Positions 5,535-58,223 of a stretch of DNA of 64,000 bases are shown here, piece after piece. The notes below the pieces were generated by a model. The model was not told the origin of the DNA. It saw only the letters and a program-made list of their open reading frames with translations, and did not search any database. A program made the position numbers and the translations under genes. This DNA is from Candidatus Zixiibacteriota bacterium (GTDB lineage Bacteria > Zixibacteria > MSB-5A5 > GN15 > JACZUZ01): assembly GCA_024280835.1 (NCBI GenBank), contig JAJRPJ010000008.1:83730-147729 (forward strand), in the 5' to 3' direction. Position 1 is the first letter of the stretch, and every line of letters begins with the position of its first letter.

Positions 5535-6503
5535 TTGGGTTCTAAAGCCACGCCAGATTCAGACACCGACCAGACCCTATCTGGGGATGAAAGGGCCAAC
5601 GAGTTTCTCACTGGGCTAGTAATCCGCGCCTATGGCAAACACTTCGTTGCTAGAACCAAATCAGGCGATTTTCGCTGTCTTCTCCGCGTCAATATCAAGC
5701 GCAAATCCAAAACCGATACGCCAGTGGTTGTTGGCGATGATGTCCATCTTACCCGTCTATCTGATACCGAAGGGGTGATTGAGCGTGTTGAACCGAGGAA
5801 GACCGCTTTTTTTCGCCCCCAAAAGGGACGCTCCAGTCTAAGACAAACTCTAGCTGCCAATATTGATCAACTTGTTGTAGTCTCATCCTGCTGGGAACCA
5901 CCACTCAAACCACGCTTTATTGATCGTTTTATAGTCGCAGGGGATTTGGGAGGCTTAGAATCTGTGGTTATTCTCAACAAAGTGGACCTCGGCAAGCCTG
6001 ATATTGTGGAAAAATTACGCGAGGGCTATGAATCGATAGGCATCCCAACGATTATCACCTCCGCTGAAACTGGTGAAGGACTCGAAAAACTTAGATCAGT
6101 CTTGGTCGGAAAAAAATCACTCTTTGCTGGACATTCTGGAGTAGGAAAGTCAACCCTGTTGAATTACCTCCTCCCAGGAATTAATATCAAGACCGCCGAA
6201 GTTTCAGAAAATTCAAGCCGAGGCAAACACACCACCACTCGAGTAGAATTGCATGAACTACCCACAGGTGGTTTCGTTTTGGACTCCCCTGGCCTCAAAG
6301 TTCTGTCTCTCTGGAAAGTCAGCCAAAAAACTCTGGCGCAGCACTTCCTAGAATTCGAACAATATATGGCCAATTGCCGTTTTCGGGATTGTGTCCATGT
6401 TTCCGAACCTGATTGCGCGGTTCGTGATGCAGCAGAAAGTGGGAAGATACCACTCTTTCGCTATCAGAGCTATATTCATATTAGAGAGACAATTGAGAGC
6501 TAA
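5535..6503 (+). CDS. rsgA: ribosome small-subunit-dependent GTPase A
   Basis: It has the circularly permuted GTPase order: NKVDL (G4) precedes GHSGVGKSTLLN (G1). The C-terminal zinc knuckle is CRFRDCVHVSEPDCAV. The start appears to be TTG. Confidence 0.88.
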   Translation: MGSKATPDSDTDQTLSGDERANEFLTGLVIRAYGKHFVARTKSGDFRCLLRVNIKRKSKTDTPVVVGDDVHLTRLSDTEGVIERVEPRKTAFFRPQKGRSSLRQTLAANIDQLVVVSSCWEPPLKPRFIDRFIVAGDLGGLESVVILNKVDLGKPDIVEKLREGYESIGIPTIITSAETGEGLEKLRSVLVGKKSLFAGHSGVGKSTLLNYLLPGINIKTAEVSENSSRGKHTTTRVELHELPTGGFVLDSPGLKVLSLWKVSQKTLAQHFLEFEQYMANCRFRDCVHVSEPDCAVRDAAESGKIPLFRYQSYIHIRETIES

Positions 6504-6636
6504 AGACATAAAACAGGTTGTTAATTCAACTGCGGGGTATAAGTTCTCTGGAAGCGCCGCCAGAAAAGCTGTATCTTCTCTAGGCGAGATGAAGGGGCGA
6601 GATGAGCCGCCAAGCCGCTGGCAAAGCTATAACCCC

Positions 6637-8886
6637 ATGATTAGTAGATTGATAAGACATAAATTGAAATCAAGATTGAATACAACCGAAACAACGGCGC
6701 TAAAGAGCAAAACGCTGGGTCAAACAATCCGTTCTGTAGTCTCAGCCAGTTCAGTTCGCAGAATCAGCGCCCTGTTGATAGCGCTGACCCTCATATCTTC
6801 CCTCTCTGGGTGTGTCTATTTTAATACTTTCTACAATGCCCGCAAGAACTTCAATGAAGCCGAAAGCGAACGAAAAAATTCTCTCGCCAAAGGCGGCAAA
6901 CCCCGAGTCAACCGTTCGAAATATAAGATCGCTATCGAAAAGTCCTCCGTTGTACTCGAAAAGCACCCCGACTCTAAGTACTATGACGATGCGCTCTATA
7001 TGATTGGCGTTTCGTACTATTGGACCACAGAATATCTCAAGAGCCAACGCAAGTTCCGCGAATTGCTGGCTAATTTTGAAGAATCCGATTACACCATCCG
7101 CTCTCGTCTATACCTCGCCAAATGTAAGTTGGCTCTCGATGAACGCGCTGAAGCAATCATAATTTTTCAAAATCTGCTCGAAACAGTCGATGATGACAAA
7201 ATTCGCACAGAAGCGGCCTTTGCAATTGGCGACTTCTATTTTGACGCCACCGAATACGAAAAAGCTAACATTTACTATGAAGCGCTAATTGACTCCTTGG
7301 CGTCTACTGATGTAGGCCGCAGAAAAGGACGACTAAGAGTTGCCGAAGGCTACTTTGCGCGTTTCTCAATTCCTGCGGCTAAGGACAATTTCTTGGCTGT
7401 TCTGGATATGAACCCAACTCTCGAAGAAGAATACGTGGCCAACTTTCGTGCGGGAGAATGTAGTTACCTTCTTCAAGACATCATTGGCGGACTTGAACGC
7501 TTTGAACTACTAGCTGATGACACACGCTTCTATGACTCAATCGGTAGTGTTCGCTTACAAATCGCACGTGGGTATGAACTCGATGACGACATGGAACTGG
7601 CTCTTGAAGAATATGAAAACATCTCTGTCGAATCCGAAGCTTCACCTGCGGCTGGAGCCGCCCTCTACAATCTCGGACTAATCTATCAATTCGACCTCGA
7701 AGATTTTGATAAGTCACTTGAATACTATGAACAGGCCAAGAAAAAAGGGCGCACTCGCAATCCATTCTACGATGAATCGGTTCGCCGAGCCGCCGATATA
7801 GCTAAGCTAGCAACGTTCAAGGAAGGCACGGCGCTAGACACTGCCGCCACACAAGAGCAAATTGATCAAGCCGCGCAAGCGCAGTTACGCCTCGGTGAAT
7901 TATTTCTCTTTGATCTCAATCAGCCCGACTCAGCTGTATCGGCCTTCCAGTATGCCATCGACAGTCTACCGAACGCCTACTACACACCGCGCGCCCTTCT
8001 CTCACTAGCGCTAACACAAAGAGACTATTTGGAAGACACGACCTCCTACGATTCGCTCATGCAAGAGTTTCTGGTCCGTTATCCAAAATCAGACTATTAT
8101 GCCGATGCCCTTGAGATACTCGGACTCGTGGGCACAGAAGCCGACACTGGTTACGCGGGAAGTTATTTCGCCAAAGCCGAACACTGGTTGATCGAAGAAA
8201 GCAACCTTGATTCAGCAATGAAATATTATGAGTTCGTCGCGGACTCTTTTCCGCAGTCCAAGGTCTCAACTAAAGCTCGATTCACACTCATTTGGCTCGA
8301 CGACAAATACAATGAACAAGAAACGGATTCGACTATTTACTTCGCTTATGGTGACCTAGCTGATCTGTACCCCAACGATGATTACGGCAAGTTAGCGGGA
8401 CAAATTTCTAGCTATTCGCCCAAGCAACAAATAGCCCCCACTGCCAATGGCGACTCGGCCACTTTCGCTGACCTCGATCAAGACTCTTTAGAGCTAGCCG
8501 CCGCAGTGCGGGAAAGTCAGGAAAGTTTTGTCTCCGTTGACACCTCACTTTCTCAAGAATTGCGTTTCTATGTTCGCGAAGGCAGACAACTACGTGATGC
8601 GCAATCGAGACCTAGAGCCAACAATCCTCTGGATTTCATCTACCCAGTCTCTGCCGCCTCACAACCAGATTTCTTCGATCTATATTTTCAGGTGCAAATT
8701 GACTTTGATGGCCTGGTGATGGATTCAAAACTGATGAACCCAACTCAATTTTCCGAATTGAACCGCCTGATTAAAGAGCAAGTTGATAACTTCGTTTTCA
8801 GCTCGAGTAAGTGGGGCGATTTAGGCCGTGGTGATGGCTGGTTCGTTTACAAATATCGCGTAACTAAGCCGGAGTACCTTCGATGA
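6637..8886 (+). CDS. TPR-repeat outer-membrane lipoprotein (BamD/YbgF-like architecture)
   Basis: The track ORF starts at 6391 inside rsgA. I moved the start to the ATG at 6637, which gives a lipobox (LISSLSGC). Multiple TPR-like helices follow (YYDDALYMIGVSYYW, AAFAIGDFYF, ALYNLGLIYQ). Confidence 0.6.
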   Translation: MISRLIRHKLKSRLNTTETTALKSKTLGQTIRSVVSASSVRRISALLIALTLISSLSGCVYFNTFYNARKNFNEAESERKNSLAKGGKPRVNRSKYKIAIEKSSVVLEKHPDSKYYDDALYMIGVSYYWTTEYLKSQRKFRELLANFEESDYTIRSRLYLAKCKLALDERAEAIIIFQNLLETVDDDKIRTEAAFAIGDFYFDATEYEKANIYYEALIDSLASTDVGRRKGRLRVAEGYFARFSIPAAKDNFLAVLDMNPTLEEEYVANFRAGECSYLLQDIIGGLERFELLADDTRFYDSIGSVRLQIARGYELDDDMELALEEYENISVESEASPAAGAALYNLGLIYQFDLEDFDKSLEYYEQAKKKGRTRNPFYDESVRRAADIAKLATFKEGTALDTAATQEQIDQAAQAQLRLGELFLFDLNQPDSAVSAFQYAIDSLPNAYYTPRALLSLALTQRDYLEDTTSYDSLMQEFLVRYPKSDYYADALEILGLVGTEADTGYAGSYFAKAEHWLIEESNLDSAMKYYEFVADSFPQSKVSTKARFTLIWLDDKYNEQETDSTIYFAYGDLADLYPNDDYGKLAGQISSYSPKQQIAPTANGDSATFADLDQDSLELAAAVRESQESFVSVDTSLSQELRFYVREGRQLRDAQSRPRANNPLDFIYPVSAASQPDFFDLYFQVQIDFDGLVMDSKLMNPTQFSELNRLIKEQVDNFVFSSSKWGDLGRGDGWFVYKYRVTKPEYLR

Positions 8887-9743: not shown

Positions 9744-10697
9744 ATGACTACCAAGACTAAAAGCAAGAAAACTACCAAATCTTCTCCCGATCTCTCGGTT
9801 GAAATCTGTGGCTATCGTTTCAAGAATCCAATTTGGACCGCCTCGGGAACCTGCGGCTATGGCGAAGAACTCGACACTGTCTTTGACTTGAATCGTCTCG
9901 GAGCAATCGTCACCAAGTCAATCACCCGCCAACCGCGCCCAGGTCACCCAACACCACGCTGCTCTGAAGAGGCCAGCGGAATGCTCAACGCTATCGGCTT
10001 GGCAAATGTCGGTGTCGAAAAATATGTCACTGAGAAATTGCGTTTTCTCGACAAGTATGATGTCGGTGTGATTGTCAATGTCGCTGGCTTCAATTTTGAT
10101 GAATATGTCGAAGTTTGCGCGATGTTGGCGGACTGTCCACGCGCAGATATGATTGAACTCAATATCTCCTGTCCGAATGTTTCCACTGGCGGAATCGAAT
10201 TCGGCGCTAGCGCAAAAGACGTTGAGAGAATTGTCAAAGCTGTCAAAAAAGTTTTCCCACGTCCGATCATCCCAAAACTCTCGCCGAATGTCACTAACAT
10301 CGCCGAAATCGCACGCGGCGCCGAACAAGGCGGCGCTGATGCTATCGCGCTGATTAACACTTTGATTGGCATGACAGTCGACATCTACACTCGCAAACCA
10401 AACCTCACCAACAATCGCGGCGGACTCTCTGGCCCAGCTATCAAACCTGTTGCGCTCTCGATGGTCAACAAAGTCTATGACGCAGTCGATGTACCTGTCA
10501 TCGGAATCGGCGGCGCTTCAAACGCCGAGGATGTCATCCAATTCATGCTCTGCGGAGCCAGCGCCGTCCAACTAGGCACAGCCCTATTCATCCAACCCGA
10601 CCTACCAATCAAAGTCGAACAAGACCTAAAAAAATACCTAAAATCCCAAAACCTAAGCTCCATAACCGACCTAATCGGCAAGATCGAAAAGTACTGA
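9744..10697 (+). CDS. pyrD: dihydroorotate dehydrogenase, class 1B catalytic subunit
   Basis: Motifs NAIGLANVG, ELNISCPNV (active-site Cys) and GIGGASNAEDV are present, and the gene lies adjacent to pyrK. Confidence 0.92.
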   Translation: MTTKTKSKKTTKSSPDLSVEICGYRFKNPIWTASGTCGYGEELDTVFDLNRLGAIVTKSITRQPRPGHPTPRCSEEASGMLNAIGLANVGVEKYVTEKLRFLDKYDVGVIVNVAGFNFDEYVEVCAMLADCPRADMIELNISCPNVSTGGIEFGASAKDVERIVKAVKKVFPRPIIPKLSPNVTNIAEIARGAEQGGADAIALINTLIGMTVDIYTRKPNLTNNRGGLSGPAIKPVALSMVNKVYDAVDVPVIGIGGASNAEDVIQFMLCGASAVQLGTALFIQPDLPIKVEQDLKKYLKSQNLSSITDLIGKIEKY

Positions 10698-20923: not shown

Positions 20924-21207
20924 TGAGTAGCCCCTTGAGTAGTTTGTGTGACTATTGGCGCTCCGAATGAGTTTCGCATATAATGACTCTCACTACAGTA
21001 TCAGAGTCGACACGGAAATCACTGCTGAGAACCCAAGAGGGCGCAAAGGCATTAAGTTGCTGTAAGGCAACAAATTAGGTGAGCGTCAAGATGGCGCGAC
21101 ATAGAGAAAAACAACCTTAATGGTAAGAGATAATCTAAGGCCGGAGGATTCTGGTGGAGTATAGTTCAAGCAGTTATTGCTCAAATAGACCCAATAAAGG
21201 AAATCAG

Positions 21208-22251
21208 ATGCAGAAACGAATTACGTCGTGGATAACATCTTGTGCAATCCTCTTCATTCTTTTATTCACTGTGTCTGGGGCAACCTTAGCGCAAGCTGGA
21301 GATCCGATTCCAACTCCCGATTGGACAGATTTCTTCGGAACGTCGGTAACATTTAATGGTCAGCCTACCCCAGTTGGCTCTCTTGTCGAGGCCTTTGACC
21401 CTCAGGGGATACTTTGTGGCAAGTTTGTCGTCAACAACGCAGGTCAATATGGATTTATGCCAACTTATGGCGACGACCAGCAAACCGCTGGGGTTGACGA
21501 GGGCGCTGTACAATCTGATGTCATTGTCTTTACAGTCAATGGCCGTTCGGCTACCAAGCTTGGCCCAGGCGACGATATCTGGGTGGGCAAAACAGATCCC
21601 AAGGAAATGAATCTGTCTTCCACAGGAACTCTTGGATTCGAAACTTTTGAATTGCCAACCGATAAGTTTGCTGGACCACTCGATACTGTACAGTTTCGCA
21701 TTGGCTTCCGTAATACTGGAGATGTCACCGATTTCTATAAACTTGAAGTCACCTCAAACATTGGCTGGGAGTTAATTTTCGACGCTGATTTCATTTATGT
21801 GCCCGCTGCCGCTGGAGATCAGTCTGTTACTTTTTCAGTAGTTGTGCCACCTTTTATTATCGGTGAAGTTAGCGACCAATTGTCATTCTCTCTGACCTCA
21901 GGGCTTGACGCTGGCAACAGTGTCTCAGGTGTGGTGAACGTCTTTGTAGTAATTACAGACGTCGACGACGACGAGACGATTCTTCCCTCGCATTTCGATC
22001 TCGGTCAGAATTATCCGAATCCTTTCAACCCGACCACCAAGATTCCATTCAGTATCAAGGCTAGCTCGGATGTGACACTCAGTGTCTATAATGTCCTTGG
22101 CCAAAAAGTCGACGAACTCAATTTGGGTAGAATGTCTTCTGGCCAGCATGTAATTGAGTACAAACCAACAAGCCAGTCCAGCGGTGTATATTTCTACAGA
22201 ATTGTCGCTGGCGATTTCACCGCTATCCGCAGGATGATATTGCTAAAATAG
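21208..22251 (+). CDS. secreted T9SS cargo protein sharing a ~100-aa domain with the giant protein
   Basis: I moved the start to the ATG at 21208, after AAAGGA, which gives a signal peptide (...TVSGATLAQAG). The C-terminal sorting domain is QNYPNPFNPTTKIPFSI...RRMILLK. Confidence 0.82.
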   Translation: MQKRITSWITSCAILFILLFTVSGATLAQAGDPIPTPDWTDFFGTSVTFNGQPTPVGSLVEAFDPQGILCGKFVVNNAGQYGFMPTYGDDQQTAGVDEGAVQSDVIVFTVNGRSATKLGPGDDIWVGKTDPKEMNLSSTGTLGFETFELPTDKFAGPLDTVQFRIGFRNTGDVTDFYKLEVTSNIGWELIFDADFIYVPAAAGDQSVTFSVVVPPFIIGEVSDQLSFSLTSGLDAGNSVSGVVNVFVVITDVDDDETILPSHFDLGQNYPNPFNPTTKIPFSIKASSDVTLSVYNVLGQKVDELNLGRMSSGQHVIEYKPTSQSSGVYFYRIVAGDFTAIRRMILLK

Positions 22252-27080: not shown

Positions 27081-27443
27081 TTACTTTTTCTTCTTACGTT
27101 GCTTAGTCTTTGCATTTTGAGCTACAGCGACAGCTTTGGCTCCCCATTTCTGCAAGAGTGTATCATCTTCGAGAATATCGGCTGGCGCCTCATAGTATTG
27201 CATGACATTCTCATTATCTTTATAGGGTTTGAATGGCCCCATACCCAGCGCTTCAAAGTCAGAACGATTGCTGTCATCAACTTTTAAGTAGAGAGTGTCG
27301 TTGGCTATCAGGCAAAAGAAAAATCCCGCACAATATATTCCTACGCCACCAAACATATTGCGAGCGCCTATTTCGCCAACATTCTTGAGAGCTACCTCTA
27401 GGCGTTCAAGAATAAATGACCTATATGACTCACTAACAGGCAT
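27081..27443 (-). CDS. TfoX N-terminal-domain protein
   Basis: The stretch RNMFGGVGIYCAGFFFCLIANDTLYLKVD is the characteristic TfoX_N core. Confidence 0.8.
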   Translation of the reverse strand: MPVSESYRSFILERLEVALKNVGEIGARNMFGGVGIYCAGFFFCLIANDTLYLKVDDSNRSDFEALGMGPFKPYKDNENVMQYYEAPADILEDDTLLQKWGAKAVAVAQNAKTKQRKKKK

Positions 27444-27468: not shown

Positions 27469-27819
27469 TTATTTAAGTAAAACGCTCGAATAAATTTCAT
27501 CATTGAAACCAACGACCATAGTCTTGCCGATTATTAGTGTAGGAGCGCGTAGATTCCCAGTTGGTCCTAAGAGTAAGGTCCCTAATGTCTCGGGGCTGGG
27601 TTTGTCTTTTGCCATATCCAAAGTCGTAACTTTGGGACCTTTGCAAACATATAGCGCAGTGACACCTTTTAGAAGTTTGAGCGCATCTTCAAGTTGTAGT
27701 TTCTGACTTGCTGGAACAGTTATCTTTGCTGTTAGATCATGTTTTCTCAGGAACTCCTGAGTCCTGCCACAACTTGTTCAGCCAGGACGCTGATAGCGCC
27801 AGTCAATTGCATCGGCCAT
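27469..27819 (-). CDS. ArsC/Spx-family thioredoxin-fold protein with in-frame UGA (candidate selenoprotein, UxxC)
   Basis: This gene is not in the ORF track. The frame from the ATG at 27819 to the TAA at 27471..27469 is open except for TGA at 27780..27778. The translation is MADAIDWRYQRPG-U-TSCGRTQEFLRKHDL...GNLRAPTLIIGKTMVVGFNDEIY. The UGA aligns with the first Cys of the Spx CTSC motif. Confidence 0.65.
27746..27761 (-). promoter_or_regulatory. candidate SECIS hairpin
   Basis: CUCAGG-AGUU-CCUGAG begins 16 nt after the UGA. The apical loop contains GU. Confidence 0.4.
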
Positions 27820-27873
27820 AGACGAAAATATTCCTTGGGACTATAAGTCAAGCACGTGACGATCCTGACTATT

Positions 27874-30561
27874 TTACATGATTAGAACGAATTTGCCAAT
27901 TTGTGTTGAGCCATCTGGTGTTTCAACGACGTAGTAATAGATTCCCGAAACAGCTACTTGTAAGTTGCGAGTAATCAGATCCCAGGTATCCTGCATTGCA
28001 GTTGGACTCTCTGGAGCTTCATCGTGATCAATTTGACGTATCAAATCACCATCAAGAGAGTACACAAGTATTTTGCAAACTGGTGGGAGATTCATGAAAT
28101 GGAGCGCGCGAGTTCTCTCGGCTTGGAAAGTCTCTCTGCCGCGCCCTTCGAAACCATCTCCGCGGTAGCCGCCATTGATGCGATAGGGATTTGGATAAAC
28201 AATGACATTGAGGTCTGCCGCTGGTTGTTGCGCGACTCTATCGAGAGCAAACATCTCAACTGCCGTTCTAACAGGATTTGTTTCGAGAAACGGCAAGTTG
28301 GTTCCTTGTGAGCCAAAATCAAAGGCTGTGACTGAAGCAAAATATTTCAGTGACGGTAACAGGTTTCTGACAGTATAACGATATTCAAAATATTTGAATC
28401 GCAATCCATCTGGAGTCAGTTCGCCATCTTGATAGAAGGTTGTCTTGCCAGTTATGGGGTCTGTATAAACAGTATCTGATTTGAAAGCCGAATCCAATAC
28501 AAGTGTATGTGGATAGGGCTCATCAGGGTAGATTGTTTGAATTCCCTTGGGGTCGGTTAGGTCACTTTGGTTGAAATCTTGCTTGACGAAATAAAACACA
28601 GAATCACCAAACCCCAATGGATTGGAGATGCCGTTATCGGTTGGCTCGTAATCACGATTGCCATCTGCGTATAAATCCTGAACTTCCGGTAGAGAAAATG
28701 GTTTGTGCAGAATTATCCAACGTGCATTGACACCTGACCCAGAACTAAGGTAGTATTGCGTGAAATCCTCGAAGTCGTAAGACGATTGCAAGACAAGTCC
28801 CACAGACGTTCGCTCTAAACCTAGATAAACTCTGTAACCCTCAAAGTCCACCTCACCGCTGAATACATCAGGTGTTGTCTCGGACAGAATACCATTCCAT
28901 TCGATTGCTATCTCTCCAACTGTTGGCTCAAAACGAACAGTCGGGGCTGGTGGTGGACTCGCTGCGCGAATATCTGGCACACCATCTCCTGTGTAGAAAA
29001 TCGTATCAGCCGAAAGAGGACCCTCAAATGTATCTATAAGAATTGTTGTATCAGGCGGCGTCATGAATGTATCGACTATGACTGTAGTATCGATAATCGT
29101 ACCACTCGAATTGACACAGACTCGAAACTTCCCGCGGTATCCATCGTTGTCGGTGTCAACGCCTGGATTGTCATAAACCCAGCTGGCCCAATTCGAATTC
29201 TTAACTAGGTCATCCCAAACAACTTTGCTCATGAATTCATCAGGATTGAACGGATCGATTGAGTTTTCGGTGTCAACATGAAAGTTTTCACCGCCTACAA
29301 GAGCAAAGGCAAAATGCGCTTTGGCTTGAGGCGCCAAAGTCAAAGGTCCGAAAGTAATCAAGTCGAAGTGATGATTATGGCTACCAAAGCCTGGACCGAG
29401 GGCTATTACAAAAGAATTATCACCTGGCGGCAACCAGCCATCTTTGGAATGGTCGATTGCGCTGAAGATTTGGTCATAGTCAAATTCGCCGCTAGACATG
29501 ACATAGTAGCGATTCTTGTCACCCTTAGGTGTTCCGAGAATCCCAGCCATGTTGCGAAATGGTTTGGTAGAGGTAGCCACCCGGCGCGGCCCCCAATCAT
29601 TTGGCCCACTGTCGCTGTCATCCCACCAGTTGTAGGAGATGGTCAATGTGTCAGACGGCAGCGACAGAAGTTTTATTGCTGTAACAGAAGTTGGTTGTCC
29701 TTCATCGAAAAACTTCTGACCCCCTGTTGGGTTTCCGTCATTGTCAGCCGCCCACCAAAGGTTAACAGTATCTTCAAACTGACAATTTGTCGGTTTCAAT
29801 GAAAAAGCTGGAGCTGTCTCTTTGAATCCAGAGATAATATCAAGGTCAAATCCCCCACGAACTTCTAAACCCAAATAGGCTTTTTCAATTGTTCTGTCTC
29901 CAATATTTGTGATGACATAGTCAAAAATTATGAAGTCTTCTGCGAATTCGAAACTCCAAGCATAGCTTGTCTGTTTGATTTTGAGGTTCAAGGGAATGTG
30001 GGGACGATTCTCAAGCTCATCTGTGCCTGTAAAAAACGATTCAACTAGAGTGTCATAATAGATGAATGATATATCTTGTTCGGAAGAAGCGCTCTCTCCT
30101 AGCGAACCAGTATCAAGAATACTTCGAACATCAAACCCTTCATTACTTGCTAACTGACTCTCCTGCGAAGCTGGCCAAAACTCGATTGTATTCGAGACTA
30201 GAGTATCGCGTCCAACGATTCCTCCCACCCAAAGATGCGGTGTTGGATAGAGTCGGCTGGTTGCACGCGGGAATGACATGAATTCGATACCATTTGTGCC
30301 GCCGCCGTTGTAGACGTCGGGGCCAATGATTCCATTGTTTTTGAGAGAGATAACGAGATTATTGACGTCGTGCATTACTATATCAATAAACGGCGCGCCA
30401 GTAGTCGCTCGGAGTTGTACAGTTGTTGGCCGCGAATGCTGGTGGCCAGGATAGACGGAGATGGCCGAGGTGGGTGGCGCCAAAGGTAGCGCTACCAAAG
30501 CGCTGACAATTCCAAAGGCCAACAAGAGCTTCCTTCTATATCGTGATTCTATGCTATTCAT
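27874..30561 (-). CDS. large secreted hypothetical protein with an FN3-like segment and a T9SS/FlgD-Ig-like C-terminal domain
   Basis: 895-aa ORF with a signal peptide (...PLAPPTSAIS). It has a DFEGYRVYLG FN3-type motif. The C-terminus is ...VSGIYYYVVETPDGSTQIGKFVLIM. Confidence 0.75.
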   Translation of the reverse strand: MNSIESRYRRKLLLAFGIVSALVALPLAPPTSAISVYPGHQHSRPTTVQLRATTGAPFIDIVMHDVNNLVISLKNNGIIGPDVYNGGGTNGIEFMSFPRATSRLYPTPHLWVGGIVGRDTLVSNTIEFWPASQESQLASNEGFDVRSILDTGSLGESASSEQDISFIYYDTLVESFFTGTDELENRPHIPLNLKIKQTSYAWSFEFAEDFIIFDYVITNIGDRTIEKAYLGLEVRGGFDLDIISGFKETAPAFSLKPTNCQFEDTVNLWWAADNDGNPTGGQKFFDEGQPTSVTAIKLLSLPSDTLTISYNWWDDSDSGPNDWGPRRVATSTKPFRNMAGILGTPKGDKNRYYVMSSGEFDYDQIFSAIDHSKDGWLPPGDNSFVIALGPGFGSHNHHFDLITFGPLTLAPQAKAHFAFALVGGENFHVDTENSIDPFNPDEFMSKVVWDDLVKNSNWASWVYDNPGVDTDNDGYRGKFRVCVNSSGTIIDTTVIVDTFMTPPDTTILIDTFEGPLSADTIFYTGDGVPDIRAASPPPAPTVRFEPTVGEIAIEWNGILSETTPDVFSGEVDFEGYRVYLGLERTSVGLVLQSSYDFEDFTQYYLSSGSGVNARWIILHKPFSLPEVQDLYADGNRDYEPTDNGISNPLGFGDSVFYFVKQDFNQSDLTDPKGIQTIYPDEPYPHTLVLDSAFKSDTVYTDPITGKTTFYQDGELTPDGLRFKYFEYRYTVRNLLPSLKYFASVTAFDFGSQGTNLPFLETNPVRTAVEMFALDRVAQQPAADLNVIVYPNPYRINGGYRGDGFEGRGRETFQAERTRALHFMNLPPVCKILVYSLDGDLIRQIDHDEAPESPTAMQDTWDLITRNLQVAVSGIYYYVVETPDGSTQIGKFVLIM

Positions 30562-36060: not shown

Positions 36061-37329
36061 TCAAACCACTAGGCGGGCTATTATTTCGTCGGCTAGGGCT
36101 AGGGAATCTTCGGTTAGGCGTAGGCGGCGGTTTTCCGCTAATAGGTGGCCGCTGTCTATTAGCTTTTTGTATTCGCTTGGAACGAAGACTTCCTCAGGGG
36201 AACGTCCATGACGTTTACGGAAGCGTGTAATATCCAGACCCTCAGTTGTGCGCAGCGCCAACATGACATCCTCAAGCACGCGGTCACGATCTGTTAGCCT
36301 ATCCCAGGTCAATGGTCGCTGTTTTTTCTTTAAGAGCGAATCGACATAGGCTTCAGTGTCCGAGACCAAAGCATAGCGATGCTCACCGTTGTAGCCATGC
36401 GCCCCAGGCCCAAGCGCCAAATACGGGACATTGGTCCAGTAGCGAATATTGTGACGGCTCTTGGCGCCATCTTTGGCGAATGAACTTATCTCGTAGCGCC
36501 TATAATTATGCTCAGCGAAATACTCATGACCGAAACGATAGAATTGCGCCATAGTGTCATTGTCGGGCATTCTAATTTCACCTGCGGTAACTTGCCGCGC
36601 CAGCGGTGTATTGTCTTTGACTGTTAGCTGGTAGAATGAAATATGTGACGGTTATAGTTCGAGCAATTCATAGAGGTCACGTTCTAATTGATGCAGGGTT
36701 TGATTTGGTAAACCAAAAATCAAATCCGCCGAGATATTATCTATTCCTAATGCGCGAGCGACATAGAAAACACGCAGTGTATCTTCTATTTTGTGCCGTC
36801 TATCTAGTGTCATCAGCGACTTGCTATTGAACGACTGCACACCAACGGAGAGTCGGTTGACACCTGTTTTTTGGAACAGCGCTAGATTTTCCTGATTGGC
36901 GCTTTCGGGGTTGACTTCAACTGTGAATTCAAGGTCTTCGGCAAAATCAAACAACTCCCCTAGTTGCTCCACCCAGCGGCCAAACAATTCTTGTGAAATC
37001 AGCGACGGTGTGCCGCCTCCGATGTAAATGCTTTGAAGGGTTATTTTCTGCGCTGTATTCGGACTGGTGTTCTTTTTGATACGGTTTCGCTGTTTGTATA
37101 GCTCTTCAACCGCCAGCGCGGTATCAATTGTCAGCGCCTGAAAATACAACGCTTCTTTGCGGCGGTTAAATAATTCTTTGTGGAAATCACAGTAACCGCA
37201 GATTTTCGAGCAAAACGGGAAATGCAGATACAATGACAGAGAGTTATCCTCGCTGAGGGATGCCCGCGAGGGTTGTGCAGTAGATATTAACTGTTCTGTG
37301 GATTTTGACAGGTCACTCATCAAACGCAT
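36061..37329 (-). pseudogene. hemW: radical-SAM heme chaperone HemW (HemN-like) interrupted by one in-frame TAA
   Basis: Track ORFs 36652..37329 (CSKICGYCDF radical-SAM half) and 36061..36570 (HemN_C half) are in the same frame. Reading through the TAA at 36654..36652 gives LEL-*-PSHISFYQLTVKDNTPLARQ, which is colinear with the conserved ...P.HiS.YqLt.e..T... region. Confidence 0.8.
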
Positions 37330-47409: not shown

Positions 47410-48942
47410 CTAAAGAGACGGCATCGGAGGCGGCTCTGGGCTTGGAGGAGAACTTGGCGGTGGCGGACCTGTTTCTGGTGGCCCTGTTTCTGGTGGAATA
47501 GGCGGCGGCGGAAAGTCGGCGCCTTTTGTTTTGGGGTTTGGCACATATTCACGTCTTCCAAAACGAGTCAAAACTACTGCGCCAATACCTGAAAAAACCG
47601 CGACTGCTGAAAAGGTTATTGAGACTATCATCAGAATAATGCCTATTCCATCGAGAAAGTTGACTTGGCTAGCCTCCAGGGCAAAAGCGATTGCCCACAG
47701 TCCTAACAACACCACAATCCCAACCACAATTTTTCTTAGCAATGTGGAATCTTCGACACCATAGCTAGCGAGGGCCACTCGTCCACTAAATTGGGCATAG
47801 GCAACAATCCCTACAAGCAATGCCACAGGTGTTGCCAGAATCAGGACAATTACCAAAGGAATCCCGACAATCGTAATACCCAGAATCCCCAGGACAAACG
47901 GCAAAGCCAGAATCGAAACTATACCTGTCTTGATAGTTGTCGTTGGATAGGCGGTGATAGCCGCGCTGGCTCTAGAGACAGAATCTGGGGCTACCTGCAA
48001 TGAAATAACTGCAACTAGAATCAAGAGGAAGGCCAATCCAACAAAAATTGGTATGGCGCTAAAATCAATATTCACACGATAGCTTTCACCTAAGTCTTGA
48101 ATTAGAGGGATATTGTCTGCGACCACATTTTCTTGACCTGTTACCAAACCACCATCACTCACTCTGATTCTGGGCGAAATTACATCACCGTTAATAACAC
48201 CTGTACTACCGACAATAACTTCTTTGGCAGAAATTACATTACCTTCAACTAAGCCATCTACCCGAATTCTCTTGGAGCTAGTCACCCCATTCAAGACATA
48301 TTCCTCAGCTCTGATATGTACAGATTTTGTCCTAGATCTCTTCACTCTTCTTAGTTCAAGAGCCCAATCTGGATCGCGATCCCGACTGACAACAACTGTA
48401 TCCTCGCCATTGAAGAAGACCATGCCTTCACGGCCGCTTCCTGACGAAAGTCCCTGCTCCCATCCCAAACGAAAAGCGCCTAACTTGTCATCGTACTTCC
48501 AAATTCTTCCAAGAGAATCTTCAGCAGTCAAGACACCGTTTTCATATTTTGAACTTTCAAAAATCGTATCTGGAAGAGTTGTCGAAATTGAAACTGGACT
48601 TTCTGGAATTAGAACTATCTCTCCGTCAATAACCTTAATTGATCCAATCGGAAGCTCAATTGGCGTCTCCGAATTCAAATCAATTTTGAATGTATCAGAG
48701 CCGATTGTAATATTCAATGAAGTCGAATTATCTGCCGAATGGCTGGTAGTAGCTGTAGCGGACGCCTTAGCTGATTGAGCCGGTTGTGTTGAATCTGATG
48801 CGGTTACTGCGGAAATAACAATAGAGGGAACAAGCAGAGAACTAACGACAATCACCAAGACTGCAAATAGAAACAAATTACGCCATGTTTTTTGTAAGTA
48901 TCGCTTATGCGAACATTGATTCTGCATATTGCTTTCTGTCAT
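47410..48942 (-). CDS. polytopic membrane protein with a bactofilin-like beta-helix segment and a Pro-rich C-terminal tail
   Basis: It has an N-terminal TM and a repetitive segment V.G.V....I.V...G.V.G (RVDGLVEGNVISAKEVIVGSTGVINGDVISPRIRVSDGGLVTG). About 5 TM helices follow. The tail is PPPPIPPETGPPETGPPPPSSPPSPEPPPMPSL. Confidence 0.72.
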   Translation of the reverse strand: MTESNMQNQCSHKRYLQKTWRNLFLFAVLVIVVSSLLVPSIVISAVTASDSTQPAQSAKASATATTSHSADNSTSLNITIGSDTFKIDLNSETPIELPIGSIKVIDGEIVLIPESPVSISTTLPDTIFESSKYENGVLTAEDSLGRIWKYDDKLGAFRLGWEQGLSSGSGREGMVFFNGEDTVVVSRDRDPDWALELRRVKRSRTKSVHIRAEEYVLNGVTSSKRIRVDGLVEGNVISAKEVIVGSTGVINGDVISPRIRVSDGGLVTGQENVVADNIPLIQDLGESYRVNIDFSAIPIFVGLAFLLILVAVISLQVAPDSVSRASAAITAYPTTTIKTGIVSILALPFVLGILGITIVGIPLVIVLILATPVALLVGIVAYAQFSGRVALASYGVEDSTLLRKIVVGIVVLLGLWAIAFALEASQVNFLDGIGIILMIVSITFSAVAVFSGIGAVVLTRFGRREYVPNPKTKGADFPPPPIPPETGPPETGPPPPSSPPSPEPPPMPSL

Positions 48943-48966
48943 ATAGGCGCCCCGATTGACTAATTC

Positions 48967-50127
48967 TCAAAACCATCCCAAACGGATGTCACCCGAATCG
49001 CTTTTCAATGAGACGCTTGCGCCACCAGCGCCAACTAAACCTGTTATTTCACGGCGAGAAAATGAATCAACTTCCATCGGTAAGTTTTTGGTGTCGATAT
49101 CACCAGAGAGTGTTGAGAGTAACACCTTGGCTCCAGCATTATCTGGGATTGAAAATGTGATAGAACCAGATAACGTTTCGACAGTGTAATCACGTTCGGA
49201 AAATAATTCAGTGTTGACACTAACTTTACCAGTGTGCGTAAAAATATCAAGAGCGCCTCTCTCCTGCTCGATAGACAGGTCACCAGAAGTGGCCTTAAGT
49301 CGCGCATCACCGTTGATCGACGTCAGAGTGATATCTCCCGAAGTTTGAATAATCGTGACCTCACCTGTGATATTATCTCCAACAGTATTTCCTGCGCCGC
49401 CATGAATTGTGATATTACCAGTGATAGCGGTCATTCTTAAGTCTGCGGTTGTCGAGGTCAATTCAACATCTGCGTCTAGGTCTTTCAATTCAACAATGCC
49501 ACCAGAGACATCAATAGTCACTGAACCAGAGTATTGATTGACACGCACCTCACCGCTTTCGAGCGAGACATCCAGCGCGCCGCTAACACCACGAATCTCA
49601 ATATCACCGTTGGAATTGTTGAGAGTGATGTTCATATTTGCTGGAACAGAGACAGTGTAATCAACAGCGCCAAACCAGTCGTCATCGGCGCCCACCAAAC
49701 GTTCCCAAAAACTTCTGTGACGCTCAGAAACATCTTCTAACAATGTCTCTAGCAGAGCTTCATTATTACGTGTTGAAAATCTCAATTCAATATGACTAGC
49801 GACTTCGCGCGCGGCTGATTCATCAACTGCATGCACTGTCTTGACAGCGTCGATTTGGACATGCTCCAAATGTTTGACACCGACGATAGTTATGTTACCA
49901 CCCTGATTGTCAATTCGTAGGTTTGAGCCAGGTGAAACAGCTAGCTCTTTGTGGTAGTCAAAACGAAATGTCTTGGCGCTAGCAGTCTGTGCGTCAAACG
50001 CGACGCTTGAACAAACAGCCAAGACGACAATCAGTGATTTGAAAACAGTTGTAGTCTTCCGGGTTACGGTCTTATTCATAACGGCCGCCTCGTTGACGGT
50101 ATTCTTTGAGATAGTCTGGTTTCGCAT
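48967..50127 (-). CDS. DUF4097-like (LiaG/YvlB-type putative adhesin) beta-strand-repeat protein
   Basis: It has an N-terminal anchor followed by repeated G(D/N)I.(I/V)....G...(V/I) strands (GGNITIVGV, NGDIEIRGVSGALDV, SGSVTIDVSGGIVEL, TGNITIHGG, SGDITLTSINGDARL, SGDIRLG). Confidence 0.68.
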   Translation of the reverse strand: MRNQTISKNTVNEAAVMNKTVTRKTTTVFKSLIVVLAVCSSVAFDAQTASAKTFRFDYHKELAVSPGSNLRIDNQGGNITIVGVKHLEHVQIDAVKTVHAVDESAAREVASHIELRFSTRNNEALLETLLEDVSERHRSFWERLVGADDDWFGAVDYTVSVPANMNITLNNSNGDIEIRGVSGALDVSLESGEVRVNQYSGSVTIDVSGGIVELKDLDADVELTSTTADLRMTAITGNITIHGGAGNTVGDNITGEVTIIQTSGDITLTSINGDARLKATSGDLSIEQERGALDIFTHTGKVSVNTELFSERDYTVETLSGSITFSIPDNAGAKVLLSTLSGDIDTKNLPMEVDSFSRREITGLVGAGGASVSLKSDSGDIRLGWF

Positions 50128-51415: not shown

Positions 51416-51548
51416 ATAGGTATGTTTTTACAATAGGTATGTTTTCAATAATTACTTCTCAACAGGGATTATTCGCCAATGGCTATTTGCCAGTGGTTAT
51501 TCGCAGTGTTTATTCGCAGTGTTTATTCGCGCTGTTTATTCAAAACCC
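51416..51548. repeat. two adjacent tandem-repeat arrays in the ctaF-DUF420 spacer
   Basis: ATAGGTATGTTTT(T/C)A occurs twice with a 17-nt period (51416, 51433). About six 13-nt units TTATTCGCAGTGT and variants then run from 51469 to 51548, the last one overlapping the ctaF stop codon. Confidence 0.8.
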
Positions 51549-52009
51549 CAATCTTCGTCTTCAGCAGAAGTATCAGTACTATCGGACTCGTCCTCAAACT
51601 CATCTTGTGAGAGTGAATCCTCGACAATAGTTTCAGACTCGCCAGCGGCTGGTTCGAGGCTCTCATAGATAACTGCCGCGGGTACAATCGGTCGATCACG
51701 CTCTGTATAAATATCACCACGATTGAGCGTGTCATACATCGTTAGGGTTAGGAAAAAGCCCAGAAATACCAACGAACTAACAAAAGCCACAGAGTAGATT
51801 TTGTTATCCCAAAATAGGTGCATGAATATTAGAGCCACCAACGAGGCTTTGAACACAGCAATTACCATGGCGATAATCACGTTGTACTCTCCGAAGTCAA
51901 AACTCGCAGCCCAAACGGTTACGAATGTCATCACTAGCAGTACCGCCGCCACACCGAAGTACACGCTCAGTGGAAGAATGTGTGGTTTATTGGATGTCTC
52001 TGCGCTCAT
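51536..52009 (-). CDS. ctaF: cytochrome c oxidase subunit IV-family protein with an acidic C-terminal extension
   Basis: It has three TM helices with the FKASLVALIFMHLFWD signature. The last ~55 aa are highly acidic (ESETIVEDSLSQDEFEDESDSTDTSAEDEDWGFE). Confidence 0.75.
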   Translation of the reverse strand: MSAETSNKPHILPLSVYFGVAAVLLVMTFVTVWAASFDFGEYNVIIAMVIAVFKASLVALIFMHLFWDNKIYSVAFVSSLVFLGFFLTLTMYDTLNRGDIYTERDRPIVPAAVIYESLEPAAGESETIVEDSLSQDEFEDESDSTDTSAEDEDWGFE

Positions 52010-52063
52010 ATGCTTTGTGTCCTCTATACCAAATTCGCTTTAAAGAATAATCAACTGCAATTA

Positions 52064-52729
52064 TTATCCGACAAGGTACAACATCGGGAATAGGAATATC
52101 CAGATGAGATCCACCAAATGCCAGTAGAGTCCTGTCATCTCTATCGGTGTGTAATAGTCCGCTGAAAAATGATTCTTTGATGTTCGATACATCATCCAAC
52201 TGATAGTTATCATTCCAGCTATCACGTGAATTCCATGCAAACCAGTCATGGCAAAATAGACGCTGAAGAAAAGATGCGGATTAGTAGCGTCGATTTCACC
52301 GAAAGTAAAAAACTTACCCCAGACTAGACCTTCATGAATCTTGTGCGAATACTCAATAAATTTTATGACCAAAAATGTTCCAGCTAGCGCCAAAGTCATT
52401 CCCAGATTTATCATTGTCCATTTCTTACTGCCTACTTGCATTGAGCGAATAGCCAGAGCCATAGTCAGTGAACTGGTAATCAGAACTACAGTATTGGTTG
52501 CTCCAAGAGAGACATTGAGTAACTTATGGGCTTCATGGAACATCTCTGGATACCATGAGCGATAGACAGCATAGAAACAGAACAGGCCGCCAAAGAACAA
52601 AACCTCGGTGACAAGGAAAATCCAAATACCAAGCTTCGATGTTTCACGCTGCTGTTGCGCTGTGGCGAAATGATGTTGCAGGAACTCGGGTCGCTCTTCG
52701 TGTCCTGTTGTTGCCGTAGATGTTTCCAT
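52064..52729 (-). CDS. ctaE: cytochrome c oxidase subunit III
   Basis: 221 aa with the Cox3 pattern HHF...QQ...KLG.W.FL..E.LFFGGLF...TG.HG.HV..G. Confidence 0.9.
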   Translation of the reverse strand: METSTATTGHEERPEFLQHHFATAQQQRETSKLGIWIFLVTEVLFFGGLFCFYAVYRSWYPEMFHEAHKLLNVSLGATNTVVLITSSLTMALAIRSMQVGSKKWTMINLGMTLALAGTFLVIKFIEYSHKIHEGLVWGKFFTFGEIDATNPHLFFSVYFAMTGLHGIHVIAGMITISWMMYRTSKNHFSADYYTPIEMTGLYWHLVDLIWIFLFPMLYLVG

Positions 52730-52825
52730 ATTGGATTTATGCTCTATTGTGTTGCTGTGCAGTCTTATCTATTTGATTCTAGTTCGATTTACGTCGTGTA
52801 AGCTCTTGGTACTTTGCTTATCGGT

Positions 52826-54463
52826 TTACTTATCAGAGTCATCCATTTCATATGGATTGGTACTTTTGAAAATTGTTGTGGCATACGGATACGGTTCATG
52901 GTCACAAACAGGTTGCTCTTTGAAATTGTGTGGATCTGGTGGTGACGTTGAATGTGTCCATTCAAAGGTCGAAGCTCCCCAAGGATTTGATCCAGCTATA
53001 GGGCCATTCTTCACTGAATGCCAGAGATAGACCACCATAATCAAGAAACCCAGACCTAGAATATATGCGCCGACTGACGAGAAAGCGTGCATCGGCTGAT
53101 ACTGATCAAGATAATTGAAGTAACGACGCGGCATACCCTGCGAGCCCATAATGAATTGCGGGATAAAGGTGGCATTGAAACCAATGAACACCAACGCCCA
53201 AGAAATCCTCGCCCACTTTTCACTGTACATCCGACCCCATATTTTGGGCCACCAATAATGCAGACCGCCAAGGAAGGCGATAACAGTGCCACCCATCATT
53301 GTGTAATGGAAATGCGCAACAATGAAATATGTGTCATGTAGATGTAAATCAACGGCTAGTGTTCCGAGGAACAGTCCTGTTAATCCACCGATAGTGAAGA
53401 GAAAGAGGAACGCTAAAGCATACAACATCGGCACGTCAAAACTTATCGAGCCGCGATACATAGTCGACATCCAGTTGAAGACTTTGACAGCCGAAGGAAT
53501 CGCCACCGAGAAAGTTAGGAACGAGAAGATCATCGCCGATAGTTCGGACTGACCACTGGTAAACATGTGATGTCCCCAAACGACGAAACTCAATAGCGCG
53601 ATTGCTAAACTTGAATAAGCTACGGCTTTGTAACCAAAGACGGGCTTGCGTGAGAATGTCGCCATCAGTTCGCTGATAATCGCCATACCTGGCAGAATCA
53701 TGATATAAACAGCAGGATGGGAATAGAACCAGAAGAAATGCTGGAACAAGACAGGATCACCACCCATTTTCGGGTCAAAAATTCCGATTCCGACTCCACG
53801 CTCAAGTACCAAGAGCAACGCAGTTATCGCCAGCACCGGCGTTGCCAAGACCTGAATAATCGCTGTGGCATATATTCCCCAGCAGAACAGAGGCATTTTG
53901 AACCAAGTCATCCCAGGGGCGCGCATTTTATGCACTGTGGCGATGAAGTTAAGTCCGGTGAAAATTGATGAGAATCCGAGCACAAAGACAGCCATGACAA
54001 TCAAAGTGATGGCGCCTTTTGTCTGTACACTATAAGGAGTGTAAAAAGTCCAGCCAGTATCGACACCACCGATGACAATTGCTCCTAAAGCCATTATAGC
54101 TCCGACAACATAAACATACCAACTCGCCAAATTCAACCGTGGAAAAGCAACATCTACGGCGCCAAGTTGCATTGGTAGGATAAAGTTACCGAGAGCCGCT
54201 GGAATCGACGGGATAATGAACAGGAAGATCATAATCGCGCCATGCAGAGTGAATAGTTGATTGTAAGTTTGGGCGCTGATGAACTGTTCACCAGGTGAGA
54301 AAAGCTCTAAACGCATCACAAGCGCCAGCGCCCCGCCCACAAGAAAGAAGAGACTAATCGCCATTAGGTACATCAGACCAATACGCTTATGGTCCTTAGT
54401 GAGCAACCATGACTTTATGCCAGTCGGCGAATTCAGATATGTCTTATAGGGTAGTGTATTCAT
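52826..54463 (-). CDS. ctaD: cytochrome c oxidase subunit I
   Basis: 545 aa with the heme-copper oxidase signatures [20 protein letters not shown] and HFHYTMMGG. Confidence 0.97.
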
Positions 54464-54514
54464 TAGCTTAGTTTACTTCCATTGAGCGATTGTTACGCAA
54501 TCTCTCACTTTGCA

Positions 54515-55456
54515 TTATTTCAATGTCTTCATATAGGCAACCAGTGCGTCAATATCTTTGTCGCTGAGTATTCCTTGGAAGGTTGGCATTACCGGCTGAA
54601 ACCCTTTGACAACCTTCGCATTGGGATTGAGAATTGACTCTCTGACATAATTTTCATCAACTGTAATTTTTTCACCTGAAGCCATCACTTCGGTACTACC
54701 GAAAGTACCTTGCCAAGTCGGACCGACACTTTTGCTACCATCGGTGCTATGGCAGGTATTGCAAGCGCGGCTGGTGAAGAGTTTTTTGCCCTTTTCGGCG
54801 GGAGGTGTGCCAGAATCATCACTTTGCTTCTCGAGCCACTTTTCATAATCAGTTTGCGAGACAACTTTAACCATCGCCAGCATATCCGAATGTGATTTGC
54901 CACAATACTCTGTGCAAAACACTTGGAATTCGCCCTCATACATCGCCTCAAACCAAATACTGGTATACCGATTTGGCAGAACGTCCATTTTTACACGAAA
55001 TGCTGGGACATAGAAACTATGTAGGACATCCAGTGAAGACATCAACAACTTAACAGGTTTATTGACTGGCACAACTAATTCACCACCCGTATTGAACCCT
55101 TCGGGATAGTCAAATATCCAAGCCCATTGGTAGCCAGTGACTTTTATTTCCAAAGCATCCTTGGGTATCACGTTCATTTTTAGATAGACCTGAAATCCCC
55201 AAGCGAACATGACCAGCACAATAAGCGTCGGAATAACTGACCAGGTCAGTTCGAGTCCAGTATGTCCGTGTGGTCCAGAGGTTAGTTGGTCACGTTTCCC
55301 TTTGCGGCGGTATTTGACAGCAAAATAAATTGTGCCAAAAGTGATAACAGCCAGAAAGAATATGCTAATCCAATATACAAAATAGAATAGCGCATCGACT
55401 TCACTAGCGATGGTCGAGGCCTGTTGCGGCATCCAAATTGTGGCGGTAGTATCCAT
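54515..55456 (-). CDS. ctaC: cytochrome c oxidase subunit II with a fused C-terminal cytochrome c (caa3 type)
   Basis: It has the CuA motif CTEYCGKSHSDM and the heme c motif CNTCHS near the C-terminus. Confidence 0.93.
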   Translation of the reverse strand: MDTTATIWMPQQASTIASEVDALFYFVYWISIFFLAVITFGTIYFAVKYRRKGKRDQLTSGPHGHTGLELTWSVIPTLIVLVMFAWGFQVYLKMNVIPKDALEIKVTGYQWAWIFDYPEGFNTGGELVVPVNKPVKLLMSSLDVLHSFYVPAFRVKMDVLPNRYTSIWFEAMYEGEFQVFCTEYCGKSHSDMLAMVKVVSQTDYEKWLEKQSDDSGTPPAEKGKKLFTSRACNTCHSTDGSKSVGPTWQGTFGSTEVMASGEKITVDENYVRESILNPNAKVVKGFQPVMPTFQGILSDKDIDALVAYMKTLK

Positions 55457-55485
55457 GAACTCCTAAAAACTATCTCTTAATATAT

Positions 55486-55588
55486 TTCTTTTCAAACGAC
55501 TTTTTTGAGCAAAATTTCAAACAGCATTTCAAACAATTTCTTCAAAAGACTTCTTCTACTGACTCTTCTAAGGACTCAATCTAACGAT
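55486..55588. repeat. degenerate 12-13-nt tandem array in the SCO1-ctaC spacer
   Basis: The units are TTTCAAACAGCA / TTTCAAACAATT / TCTTCAAAAGAC / TTCTTCTACTGAC / TCTTCTAAGGAC / TCAATCTAACGAT, preceded by two looser units. Confidence 0.7.
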
Positions 55589-55606
55589 TCACCCACCAAA
55601 TTATGC

Positions 55607-56515
55607 TTAACTAAGCGGAGCGATTGGTGTCCCTTTTGAACCAACATTCTCCGAATTTGATTGTTTGCTGCGCCTTCTGACCCACATGACCCCGAAGAAA
55701 AACGCAAAGGCCAAAACCATCATGACACCACCAAGTTTCATAACGTTAGTCGCAAACAATACATAGCCTTTTGAATCTGGGTCATAGTGAAAACAGTACA
55801 AAATCAATTTATCAACTGTTGTGCCATATTTTCCAGCAGAGGCCTCTAGAAGCGCCAAGCGCAGATTCTGGCGAGTATGATCAATGCCATACAAGTAACG
55901 AGAAACCATACCCTCTGGTGTCAGAATGATTGTCACCGCAGGATGCGCATATGTCTGGGTTGAACTGTCATAGCGATAGCCAAAACCAACAGCATCGGCA
56001 AGCGCCTGTGATTGATCAACTTCGGCAACCGCGAAAGTCCAACCCGCTGGATCAAATGGCTTCTGTGCGTTTTCCTCGAACTCTTTGAGGTAATTATTTT
56101 TCTTGGCCAAGGCCAACTCGGGAGTTTCTTTAGGATTAATACTAACTGTGAGCATATCAAACTCTGTAGCAGCATTCCATTTTAGCTGAGCCACTGAGCG
56201 ACTAAGACCATTGAAAACCAAATTGCAAAGCATTGGACATTCAAAATAGCCGAGTGTCAAAATTATTGGTTTCTCCTGATGGAGCATTGAACCAAGCGTA
56301 ACAGTGTCGCCAGCTTCATTGACAATTTTGATATCCTCGGGGACATATTCACCAAGATGCTCAATGACATCAATGCCACTCAATTCTTCTGGAGCCTCAG
56401 TGAGAGCTCTTTGTGCAAAGCTATTGGCGAAGAGCCCGCAAGTAGCAGCTATAAGTACCCCGAACGCTAGCGCTGTGTTCTGGATACTGCCTGATATGTT
56501 TTTTGAAATTTGCAT
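55607..56515 (-). CDS. SCO1/SenC copper chaperone
   Basis: It has a thioredoxin fold with the CxxxC copper site (GYFECPMLCN) and a downstream His (YAHPA). A C-terminal TM helix is present. Confidence 0.88.
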   Translation of the reverse strand: MQISKNISGSIQNTALAFGVLIAATCGLFANSFAQRALTEAPEELSGIDVIEHLGEYVPEDIKIVNEAGDTVTLGSMLHQEKPIILTLGYFECPMLCNLVFNGLSRSVAQLKWNAATEFDMLTVSINPKETPELALAKKNNYLKEFEENAQKPFDPAGWTFAVAEVDQSQALADAVGFGYRYDSSTQTYAHPAVTIILTPEGMVSRYLYGIDHTRQNLRLALLEASAGKYGTTVDKLILYCFHYDPDSKGYVLFATNVMKLGGVMMVLAFAFFFGVMWVRRRSKQSNSENVGSKGTPIAPLS

Positions 56516-56547
56516 AATCGCTTCTCGACTTCAACTATTATAGAGAC

Positions 56548-56898: not shown

Positions 56899-56915
56899 TC
56901 TTAATTTGCCTTTCC

Positions 56916-58118: not shown

Positions 58119-58149
58119 TATTCTGATGATCTAATATTTTTGTGCAATT

Positions 58150-58209
58150 GCTTGAAATGATAATATTTCAAATGATAATTTCTTAAATGACGATGTTTCA
58201 ATTGACAAT
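58150..58209. repeat. four tandem 15-nt units in the actE-actF spacer
   Basis: The units are GCTTGAAATGATAAT / ATTTCAAATGATAAT / TTCTTAAATGACGAT / GTTTCAATTGACAAT, head to tail. Confidence 0.85.
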
Positions 58210-58223
58210 CCACGTAAGAGCGA

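Follow-up and report, generated by a model that had tools for sequence, protein, structure and literature searches.

A probable member of the NF041106 family of ArsC-like selenoproteins in an unannotated gap of an uncultured FCB-group bacterium

The stretch of DNA analysed here (64,000 nucleotides, hereafter the window) has a 430-bp gap between two genes, and the question that it raises is whether this gap holds a selenoprotein gene whose in-frame UGA codon conceals it from standard ORF calling. The gap lies between the start of a TfoX_N-domain gene (27443) and the end of an 895-aa gene (27874). As the earlier note on this DNA had described, the ORF list at its default threshold of 60 aa shows there only a weak plus-strand ORF of 67 aa (27503..27706). 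At a threshold of 40 aa two minus-strand fragments are listed in addition, 27469..27621 and 27500..27646. The first of them is the tail of the gene under study, opening at TTG 27621, which is the first start codon past the TGA and lies 52 codons on, so that the absence of any nearer start claimed in the note holds. Translation also agrees with the frame that the note had proposed. The minus strand is read from ATG 27819 to TAA 27471..27469 with one internal stop, the TGA at 27780..27778, which is codon 14. The translation is MADAIDWRYQRPG, TGA, TSCGRTQEFL...SSVLLK, TAA or, written with a stop sign at the TGA, MADAIDWRYQRPG (stop sign) TSCGRTQEFLRKHDL...VGFNDEIYSSVLLK. The coding sequence (27469..27819, minus strand) corresponds to an ArsC-like selenoprotein of 116 residues, defined by its translation, by its match to the NF041106 model and by the M-A-x-x-I-D start that it shares with homologs.

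The TGA (27778..27780, minus strand) is assigned to Sec, residue 14, by the homolog column and by alignment to Cys10 of Spx. It occupies the first position of U-T-S-C, the U-x-x-C redox motif made of Sec14-Thr15-Ser16-Cys17 (27769..27780, minus strand), which is delimited by translation and homolog alignment. Towards the carboxyl terminus, residues 85-94 (27538..27567, minus strand) form the signature G-P-T-G-N-L-R-A-P-T, which is invariant in homolog alignments. The neighbouring genes are on the same strand: the 895-aa gene (27874..30561) is found upstream at a distance of 54 nt and the TfoX_N-domain gene (27081..27443; Pfam TfoX_N, 98 bits) 25 nt downstream. The 895-aa protein has no match in Pfam or NCBIfam. 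No terminator-like site was seen between its gene and the selenoprotein gene, and a promoter scan returned a sigma-70-like site with 10/12 positions (27899..27871) that was not counted, since the number of such sites is not above shuffled expectation. Note that Cys45 (in LYVCKG, codon 27685..27687, minus strand) is common to the window, its two syntenic relatives (see below) and a few other loci (L020, L035, L075), most homologs having Ala at this position; judged from the alignment, this lineage may have gained a further redox residue here.

The identity of the encoded protein is given by profile searches. With U read as C, it matches the curated selenoprotein family NF041106, "ArsC family (seleno)protein", with 119 bits against a cutoff of 85 (E=1.3e-34), and the match spans model positions 1-107 of 107. 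A full-length match of this quality excludes a frame that is open by chance. The protein shares with NF041106 the U-x-x-C motif and the GPTGNLRAP signature, and the gene carries a SECIS hairpin at the position usual for the family; the differences (the minority hairpin register AGUU in place of GUU, and the extra Cys45) are nothing of substance. Other models of the superfamily fit less well. The score against Pfam PF03960 (ArsC) is 20.2 bits, under the gathering threshold of 24, and many homologs have a precomputed PF03960 hit. With the Spx/MgsR models TIGR01617 (cutoff 75.05) and NF002459 (cutoff 123) the protein reaches 27 and 26.5 bits, respectively. TIGR00014, the model of R773-type ArsC, is absent from the NCBIfam matches even at E<=1.

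A protein search yielded 187 relatives. The full-length ones read W-x-Y-H-R-x-G-C-x-x-C, and many others are called from the codon right after the Sec column or from further downstream; NCBI names some of these short-called relatives "ArsC family (seleno)protein". The DNA at this column was inspected in a genomic scan of one genome per species with a GPTGNLRAPT-type pattern, which found at least 597 genomes/loci with a relative. Whether homologs carry Cys or Sec at this column, as the earlier note had asked, is answered by the best 80 of these at least 597 loci: the codon is TGA in 77/80 and TGC in 3/80. They belong to Planctomycetota, Acidobacteriota, Zixibacteria, Ignavibacteriales, Entotheonella, Obscuribacterales, Methylomirabilota, gammaproteobacterial lineages and others, and the nearest genomic homologs have at most 61-63% identity to the window protein. 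The Cys-form proteins (P0001-P0006) have their Cys aligned to the UGA column of the window. The note had also asked about the 13 residues upstream of the UGA; the motif I-D-W-x-Y-H-R-x-G is in frame and conserved there in 80/80 loci. Many homologs, among them L006, L008, L012, L013, L016 and L017, end with TGA, so that a single mRNA has UGA as Sec and UGA as stop, about 100 codons apart.

Two of the homologous loci are syntenic with the window: L001 (CAZFAL010000115.1), from a MAG labelled Ignavibacteriales, and L002 (JAJRPM010000008.1), labelled Zixibacteria. The three regions share OtsBA, the 895-aa gene, the selenoprotein gene, TfoX_N, EamA and a beta-propeller gene, with 70-89% amino-acid identity between syntenic neighbours over up to six genes. 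Both relatives have the 895-aa gene (71-74% identity) and the TfoX_N gene (70-72%) where the window has them, and the M-A start of the selenoprotein is common to all three. The two relatives have different phylum labels, yet both are syntenic with the window, so at least one label is probably loose. Both have TGA at the Sec column, which excludes a base-calling error at this codon. At stem pair 20-33 of the hairpin that follows the UGA, the window has U-A where L002 has C-G, a compensatory change which, together with the TGA of the relatives, indicates that in this lineage selection maintains the codon as well as the hairpin.

These data bear on the simplest alternative, namely a pseudogene or an assembly error in which TGC or TGT of a Cys-form gene became TGA and nothing functional is made. 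Such a reading would fit with the lack of Sec machinery among the genes found in the 64-kb window and with the presence in the same window of a HemW-like gene that does have an in-frame stop. It is nevertheless most improbable when set against a TGA that recurs in 77/80 homologs from many phyla, including L001 and L002, against a frame that is otherwise intact and whose 13 amino-terminal codons are conserved, and against a hairpin that was kept with a compensatory change relative to L002.

A second alternative retains the gene and dispenses with Sec: the UGA would be read through by a near-cognate tRNA as Trp or Cys, or translation would start downstream and give just the 50-aa fragment that begins at TTG 27621 and ends at 27469. 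Database translations seem to favour Trp, as P0007, P0010 and P0012 display W at the Sec column (P0009 has L). However, the L072 DNA, whose protein is nearly identical to P0007, has TGA at this column, and the W of P0007-type translations thus most likely results from a translation table with TGA=Trp and not from a TGG codon. The 50-aa fragment lacks the redox motif and strand 1, and simple read-through needs no conserved hairpin with a G-U loop at SECIS distance. The TGA is moreover a normal stop elsewhere in the window: it terminates 9/41 large ORFs, including pyrD (9744..10697), as the earlier note had pointed out for that gene, and the genome is therefore not recoded. Decoding of the UGA as anything other than Sec, or its avoidance by a late start, is on this evidence hardly credible.

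The signal expected for Sec insertion is found immediately downstream of the UGA. The earlier note had described a perfect hairpin with GU in the loop 16 nt past this codon, and both sequence and folding agree. The hairpin CUCAGG-AGUU-CCUGAG (27746..27761, minus strand) encodes part of T-Q-E-F-L-R and is composed of a 5' arm CUCAGG (27761..27756), a loop AGUU (27755..27752) and a 3' arm CCUGAG (27751..27746). It starts 16 nt past the UGA, its 6-bp stem has no mismatch, its fold energy is -7.9 kcal/mol alone and -9.0 kcal/mol with flanks, and pair probabilities are 0.93-1.0 for 5/6 pairs. Published criteria for bacterial SECIS elements (PMC13188914) are an apical loop of 3-9 nt, a stem of 4-16 bp, a G among the first two nucleotides of the loop, a UGA-to-loop distance of 16-37 nt and a minimum free energy of -7.5 kcal/mol or lower. 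The window hairpin passes all of them, with a loop of 4 nt in which G is at position 2 and is followed by U, a stem of 6 bp, a spacing of 22 nt and -7.9 to -9.0 kcal/mol.

The hairpin is a property of the family. Among the 78 Sec-form sequences (77 loci and the window), 75 have it at the same position, the 5' arm ending 24-25 nt past the U of the UGA. Stems are of 5-9 bp with 32 distinct 5' arms, and the loop is GUU in 56 sequences and AGUU in 7, window included. In a gapless alignment of 54 columns, 79.7% of cells are paired and 49 are altered on both sides, sliding of the 3' partner leaves 30-62% paired, and the covariation score is reached by 0/500 shuffles. Over the covariation analyses together the figures are 79.7-80% of cells paired and 49-54 altered on both sides. 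Realignment with a covariance model finds changes on both sides in 7/8 pairs. The element class lies outside Rfam, whose models searched against 27680..27830 at E<=10 return noise and none that recognises the hairpin.

The stem encodes the conserved peptide T-Q-E-F-L, and its conservation was for this reason tested against synonymous recoding. The rival to be weighed is that the hairpin is a by-product of this peptide while Sec is inserted through another element. The codon series CAR-GAR-UUY-YUN is indeed partly self-complementary, the inner four pairs fall in the protein-conserved Q-E/F-L codons, and for the window alone the test is moderately strong, 2% of synonymous recodings matching the observed hairpin. 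Across the family, however, the median z is 2.64 and 55/78 loci are at or below 5%, that is, they exceed 95% of their own recodings. The outer pairs, which covary, fall on positions of the flanking codons that are synonymous or variable. The Cys forms relax peptide (SQDYL, TQKFL, AEDFL) and hairpin alike: the three Cys-form loci show no hairpin excess over recodings, and with the RNA model of the family two of the three obtain much lower scores. Nor was another conserved structure seen that could replace the hairpin. A by-product of the peptide is accordingly a very unlikely explanation, and the conserved, covarying hairpin that fits the published criteria is best read as the bacterial SECIS element that the earlier note had claimed.

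A second stem, GUCCUGG...CAGGAC (27735..27790, minus strand; pair probabilities 0.77-1.0), encloses the UGA, with the SECIS hairpin stacked directly against it. It was rejected as a conserved element and regarded as window-specific chance, being absent from L001 and L002. Though probably fortuitous, it might affect how accessible the UGA is in the window organism.

Taken with the conserved frame and the TGA of homologs, this leaves little doubt that the locus is a genuine Sec-encoding gene. By the established bacterial Sec pathway, SelB-GTP-Sec-tRNA(Sec) would bind the hairpin 27761..27746 during translation. With the loop beginning 22 nt past the UGA, Sec would then be delivered to codon 14 and the ribosome would not terminate. 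The factors of this pathway would be encoded outside the window: selA, selB and selD are absent from the 41 ORFs scanned in the 64-kb window, and tRNA-Sec was not found there, Rfam at gathering thresholds recognising in this stretch one tRNA, for Arg. A literature search brought up no report of Sec use for either Ignavibacteria or Zixibacteria.

The window was also scanned for further TGA-interrupted genes, which gave out-of-frame noise and one adjacent pair of genes in the same frame. In this pair (47410..50127, minus strand) a LiaG-like gene (50127..48967) ends with TGA, and the next gene (48942..47410, 510 aa, no family match) follows eight codons on; plain adjacency is the most likely explanation. 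The HemW/HemN-like radical-SAM gene mentioned above (36061..37329, minus strand) is split by one in-frame TAA at 36654..36652 (...YELLEL, stop, PSHISFYQLTVKDNT...) into two same-frame ORFs that code Radical_SAM (225 aa) and HemN_C (169 aa). Loss of function as a pseudogene, an error of sequencing or a true division into two genes could each account for this. The stop is TAA and not TGA, and the case is therefore unrelated to Sec.

Other genes of the window inform on the host. A cluster for aerobic respiration (51536..63938, minus strand) codes subunits II, I, III and IV of a caa3-type cytochrome oxidase and an Alternative Complex III-like set that comprises a 976-aa QrcB/QrcC-like fusion and a DsrP-like membrane subunit. 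T9SS components are encoded at 6391..8886 and 21154..22251. The respiration cluster and the T9SS components point to an aerobic or microaerobic bacterium of the FCB group.

The place of the protein in its superfamily was approached by profile and structure comparison. The family profile searched against the PDB hits the ArsC-related protein 2m46 (2e-8), Spx (2.5e-6), YffB (5e-4) and 3gkx among others, with E values from 2e-8 to 2e-3. When the profile is aligned to PDB 1z3e, the U column coincides with Cys10 of Spx, and NLRAPTL...VGFN with LRRPII...VGYN. The alignment that the earlier note had proposed, with the UGA on the first redox Cys and a shared carboxyl-terminal block, is thereby reproduced. 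The fold was examined on the Cys-form homolog P0006, 51% identical to the window protein, for which AlphaFold gave a model with pLDDT 94.3. Its CxxC lies between strand 5-10 and helix 15-26, as usual in the thioredoxin fold, and a beta-hairpin (residues 56-69) is found between strand 2 and the carboxyl-terminal strands. The top 13 Foldseek matches of this model are all Spx, YffB or ArsC-related proteins (probability 0.99-1.0, TM 0.45-0.56). Similarity to the best of them, which come from all three groups, is moderate (TM 0.52-0.56; rmsd of 6-8 A for Spx/YffB). Such TM values and the invariant GPTGNLRAPT indicate that the family is a distinct branch of the ArsC/Spx/YffB superfamily. The window protein is thus very probably a thioredoxin-fold oxidoreductase of this superfamily and of the NF041106 family, with Sec at the UGA.

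Following the architecture of CxxC-type proteins, Sec14 would stand at the amino terminus of helix 1 as the attacking nucleophile. Cys17 would be the resolving residue, as in the CxxC chemistry of the thioredoxin fold, and the pair may cycle between selenol/thiol and selenenylsulfide. Three other members of the superfamily serve for comparison. YffB has been described as a thiol reductase that depends on glutathione. Like the window protein it is a small stand-alone member of the ArsC family; it is matched by the family profile (5e-4) and has the top TM-score among the fold matches of the P0006 model (TMq 0.56, TMt 0.57). It differs in being a Cys protein without the GPTGNLRAP signature, and the profile hit is weak. 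The most likely role of the window protein would be to reduce disulfides (as a thiol reductase) of small molecules or of proteins, and YffB would be the nearest in kind.

In Firmicutes, Spx/MgsR is a regulator that senses redox state through its CxxC and binds to RNA polymerase. Spx proteins (TIGR01617; structures 1z3e and 6gho) share with the window protein the superfamily fold, the amino-terminal CxxC at the same column and the carboxyl-terminal LR(R/A)P...VG(Y/F)N block. They differ by the HMM score (27 bits against a cutoff of 75), by a TM of about 0.53 and by a helical insert where the P0006 model has the beta-hairpin 56-69. The NF041106 family occurs in phyla from which Spx is not known to have been described. 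HMM scores far below cutoff and a different insert subdomain make a regulatory role of the Spx type unlikely.

R773-type ArsC (TIGR00014) belongs to the same Pfam clan and has its nucleophile at the same amino-terminal position. It uses an Arg triad around the catalytic Cys, whereas R91 is the only invariant Arg in the alignment of the NF041106 family. R773-type ArsC has its own Sec form, listed as "Arsenate reductase (ArsC) 1, UxxS" (PMC2398784), which differs from UxxC in the window. Judged from these sequence features, arsenate reduction by the R773 mechanism appears unlikely, because TIGR00014 does not match, a single Arg is invariant and no ars genes are found near the selenoprotein gene in the window.

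Genomic context gives no hint of substrate or function, since clustering of neighbours over the 80 loci revealed no recurrent partner; the largest cluster, of sulfatase-like proteins, covers 13 loci with no fixed side or strand. A more tentative reading, to which we give somewhat less than even weight, is that NF041106 is a distinct selenoenzyme with its own substrate, being neither an arsenate reductase, nor a Spx-like regulator, nor an equivalent of YffB. The pointers to it are the invariant G-P-T-G-N-L-R-A-P-T, the beta-hairpin insert of the predicted structure and the near-exclusive use of Sec. The latter, seen in 77/80 sampled loci from many phyla, would suggest a chemistry that Cys performs poorly.

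The family to which the window gene is assigned has a published record. ArsC-like selenoproteins were reported in 2006 (PMC1794560), and the GOS survey of Zhang and Gladyshev in 2008 (PMC2398784) listed "Arsenate reductase 2, cd03032, UxxC" with 42 Sec and 238 Cys sequences. The entry "Arsenate reductase-like protein, UxxC" appears in reviews of 2022 (PMC9312934) and 2026 (PMC13188914), the latter of which cites NF041106 explicitly, credits the GOS study of 2008 and describes the functions of such selenoprotein families as largely uncharacterized. Earlier catalogues thus already contain this family, together with its UxxC motif and the pairing of Sec and Cys forms. Of the unannotated candidate selenoprotein put forward in the earlier note, the gene and its Sec reading are supported; in kind, however, it is not new, as publications list the family from 2008 onwards and NCBIfam has a model dedicated to it.

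The window gene adds a member to an already known selenoprotein family and corrects an annotation, current understanding being unchanged. Its value for annotation is that standard ORF calling leaves this locus empty or reports no more than a truncated piece of it; many of the homologs in databases suffer the same truncation or are translated with W at the Sec position. The hairpin alignment of 78 sequences and its covariance model provide a well-supported, family-specific bacterial SECIS. For the organism, an uncultured bacterium of the FCB group in which the caa3 oxidase and the Alternative Complex III-like cluster suggest aerobic respiration, the gene would mark its host as a selenocysteine user.
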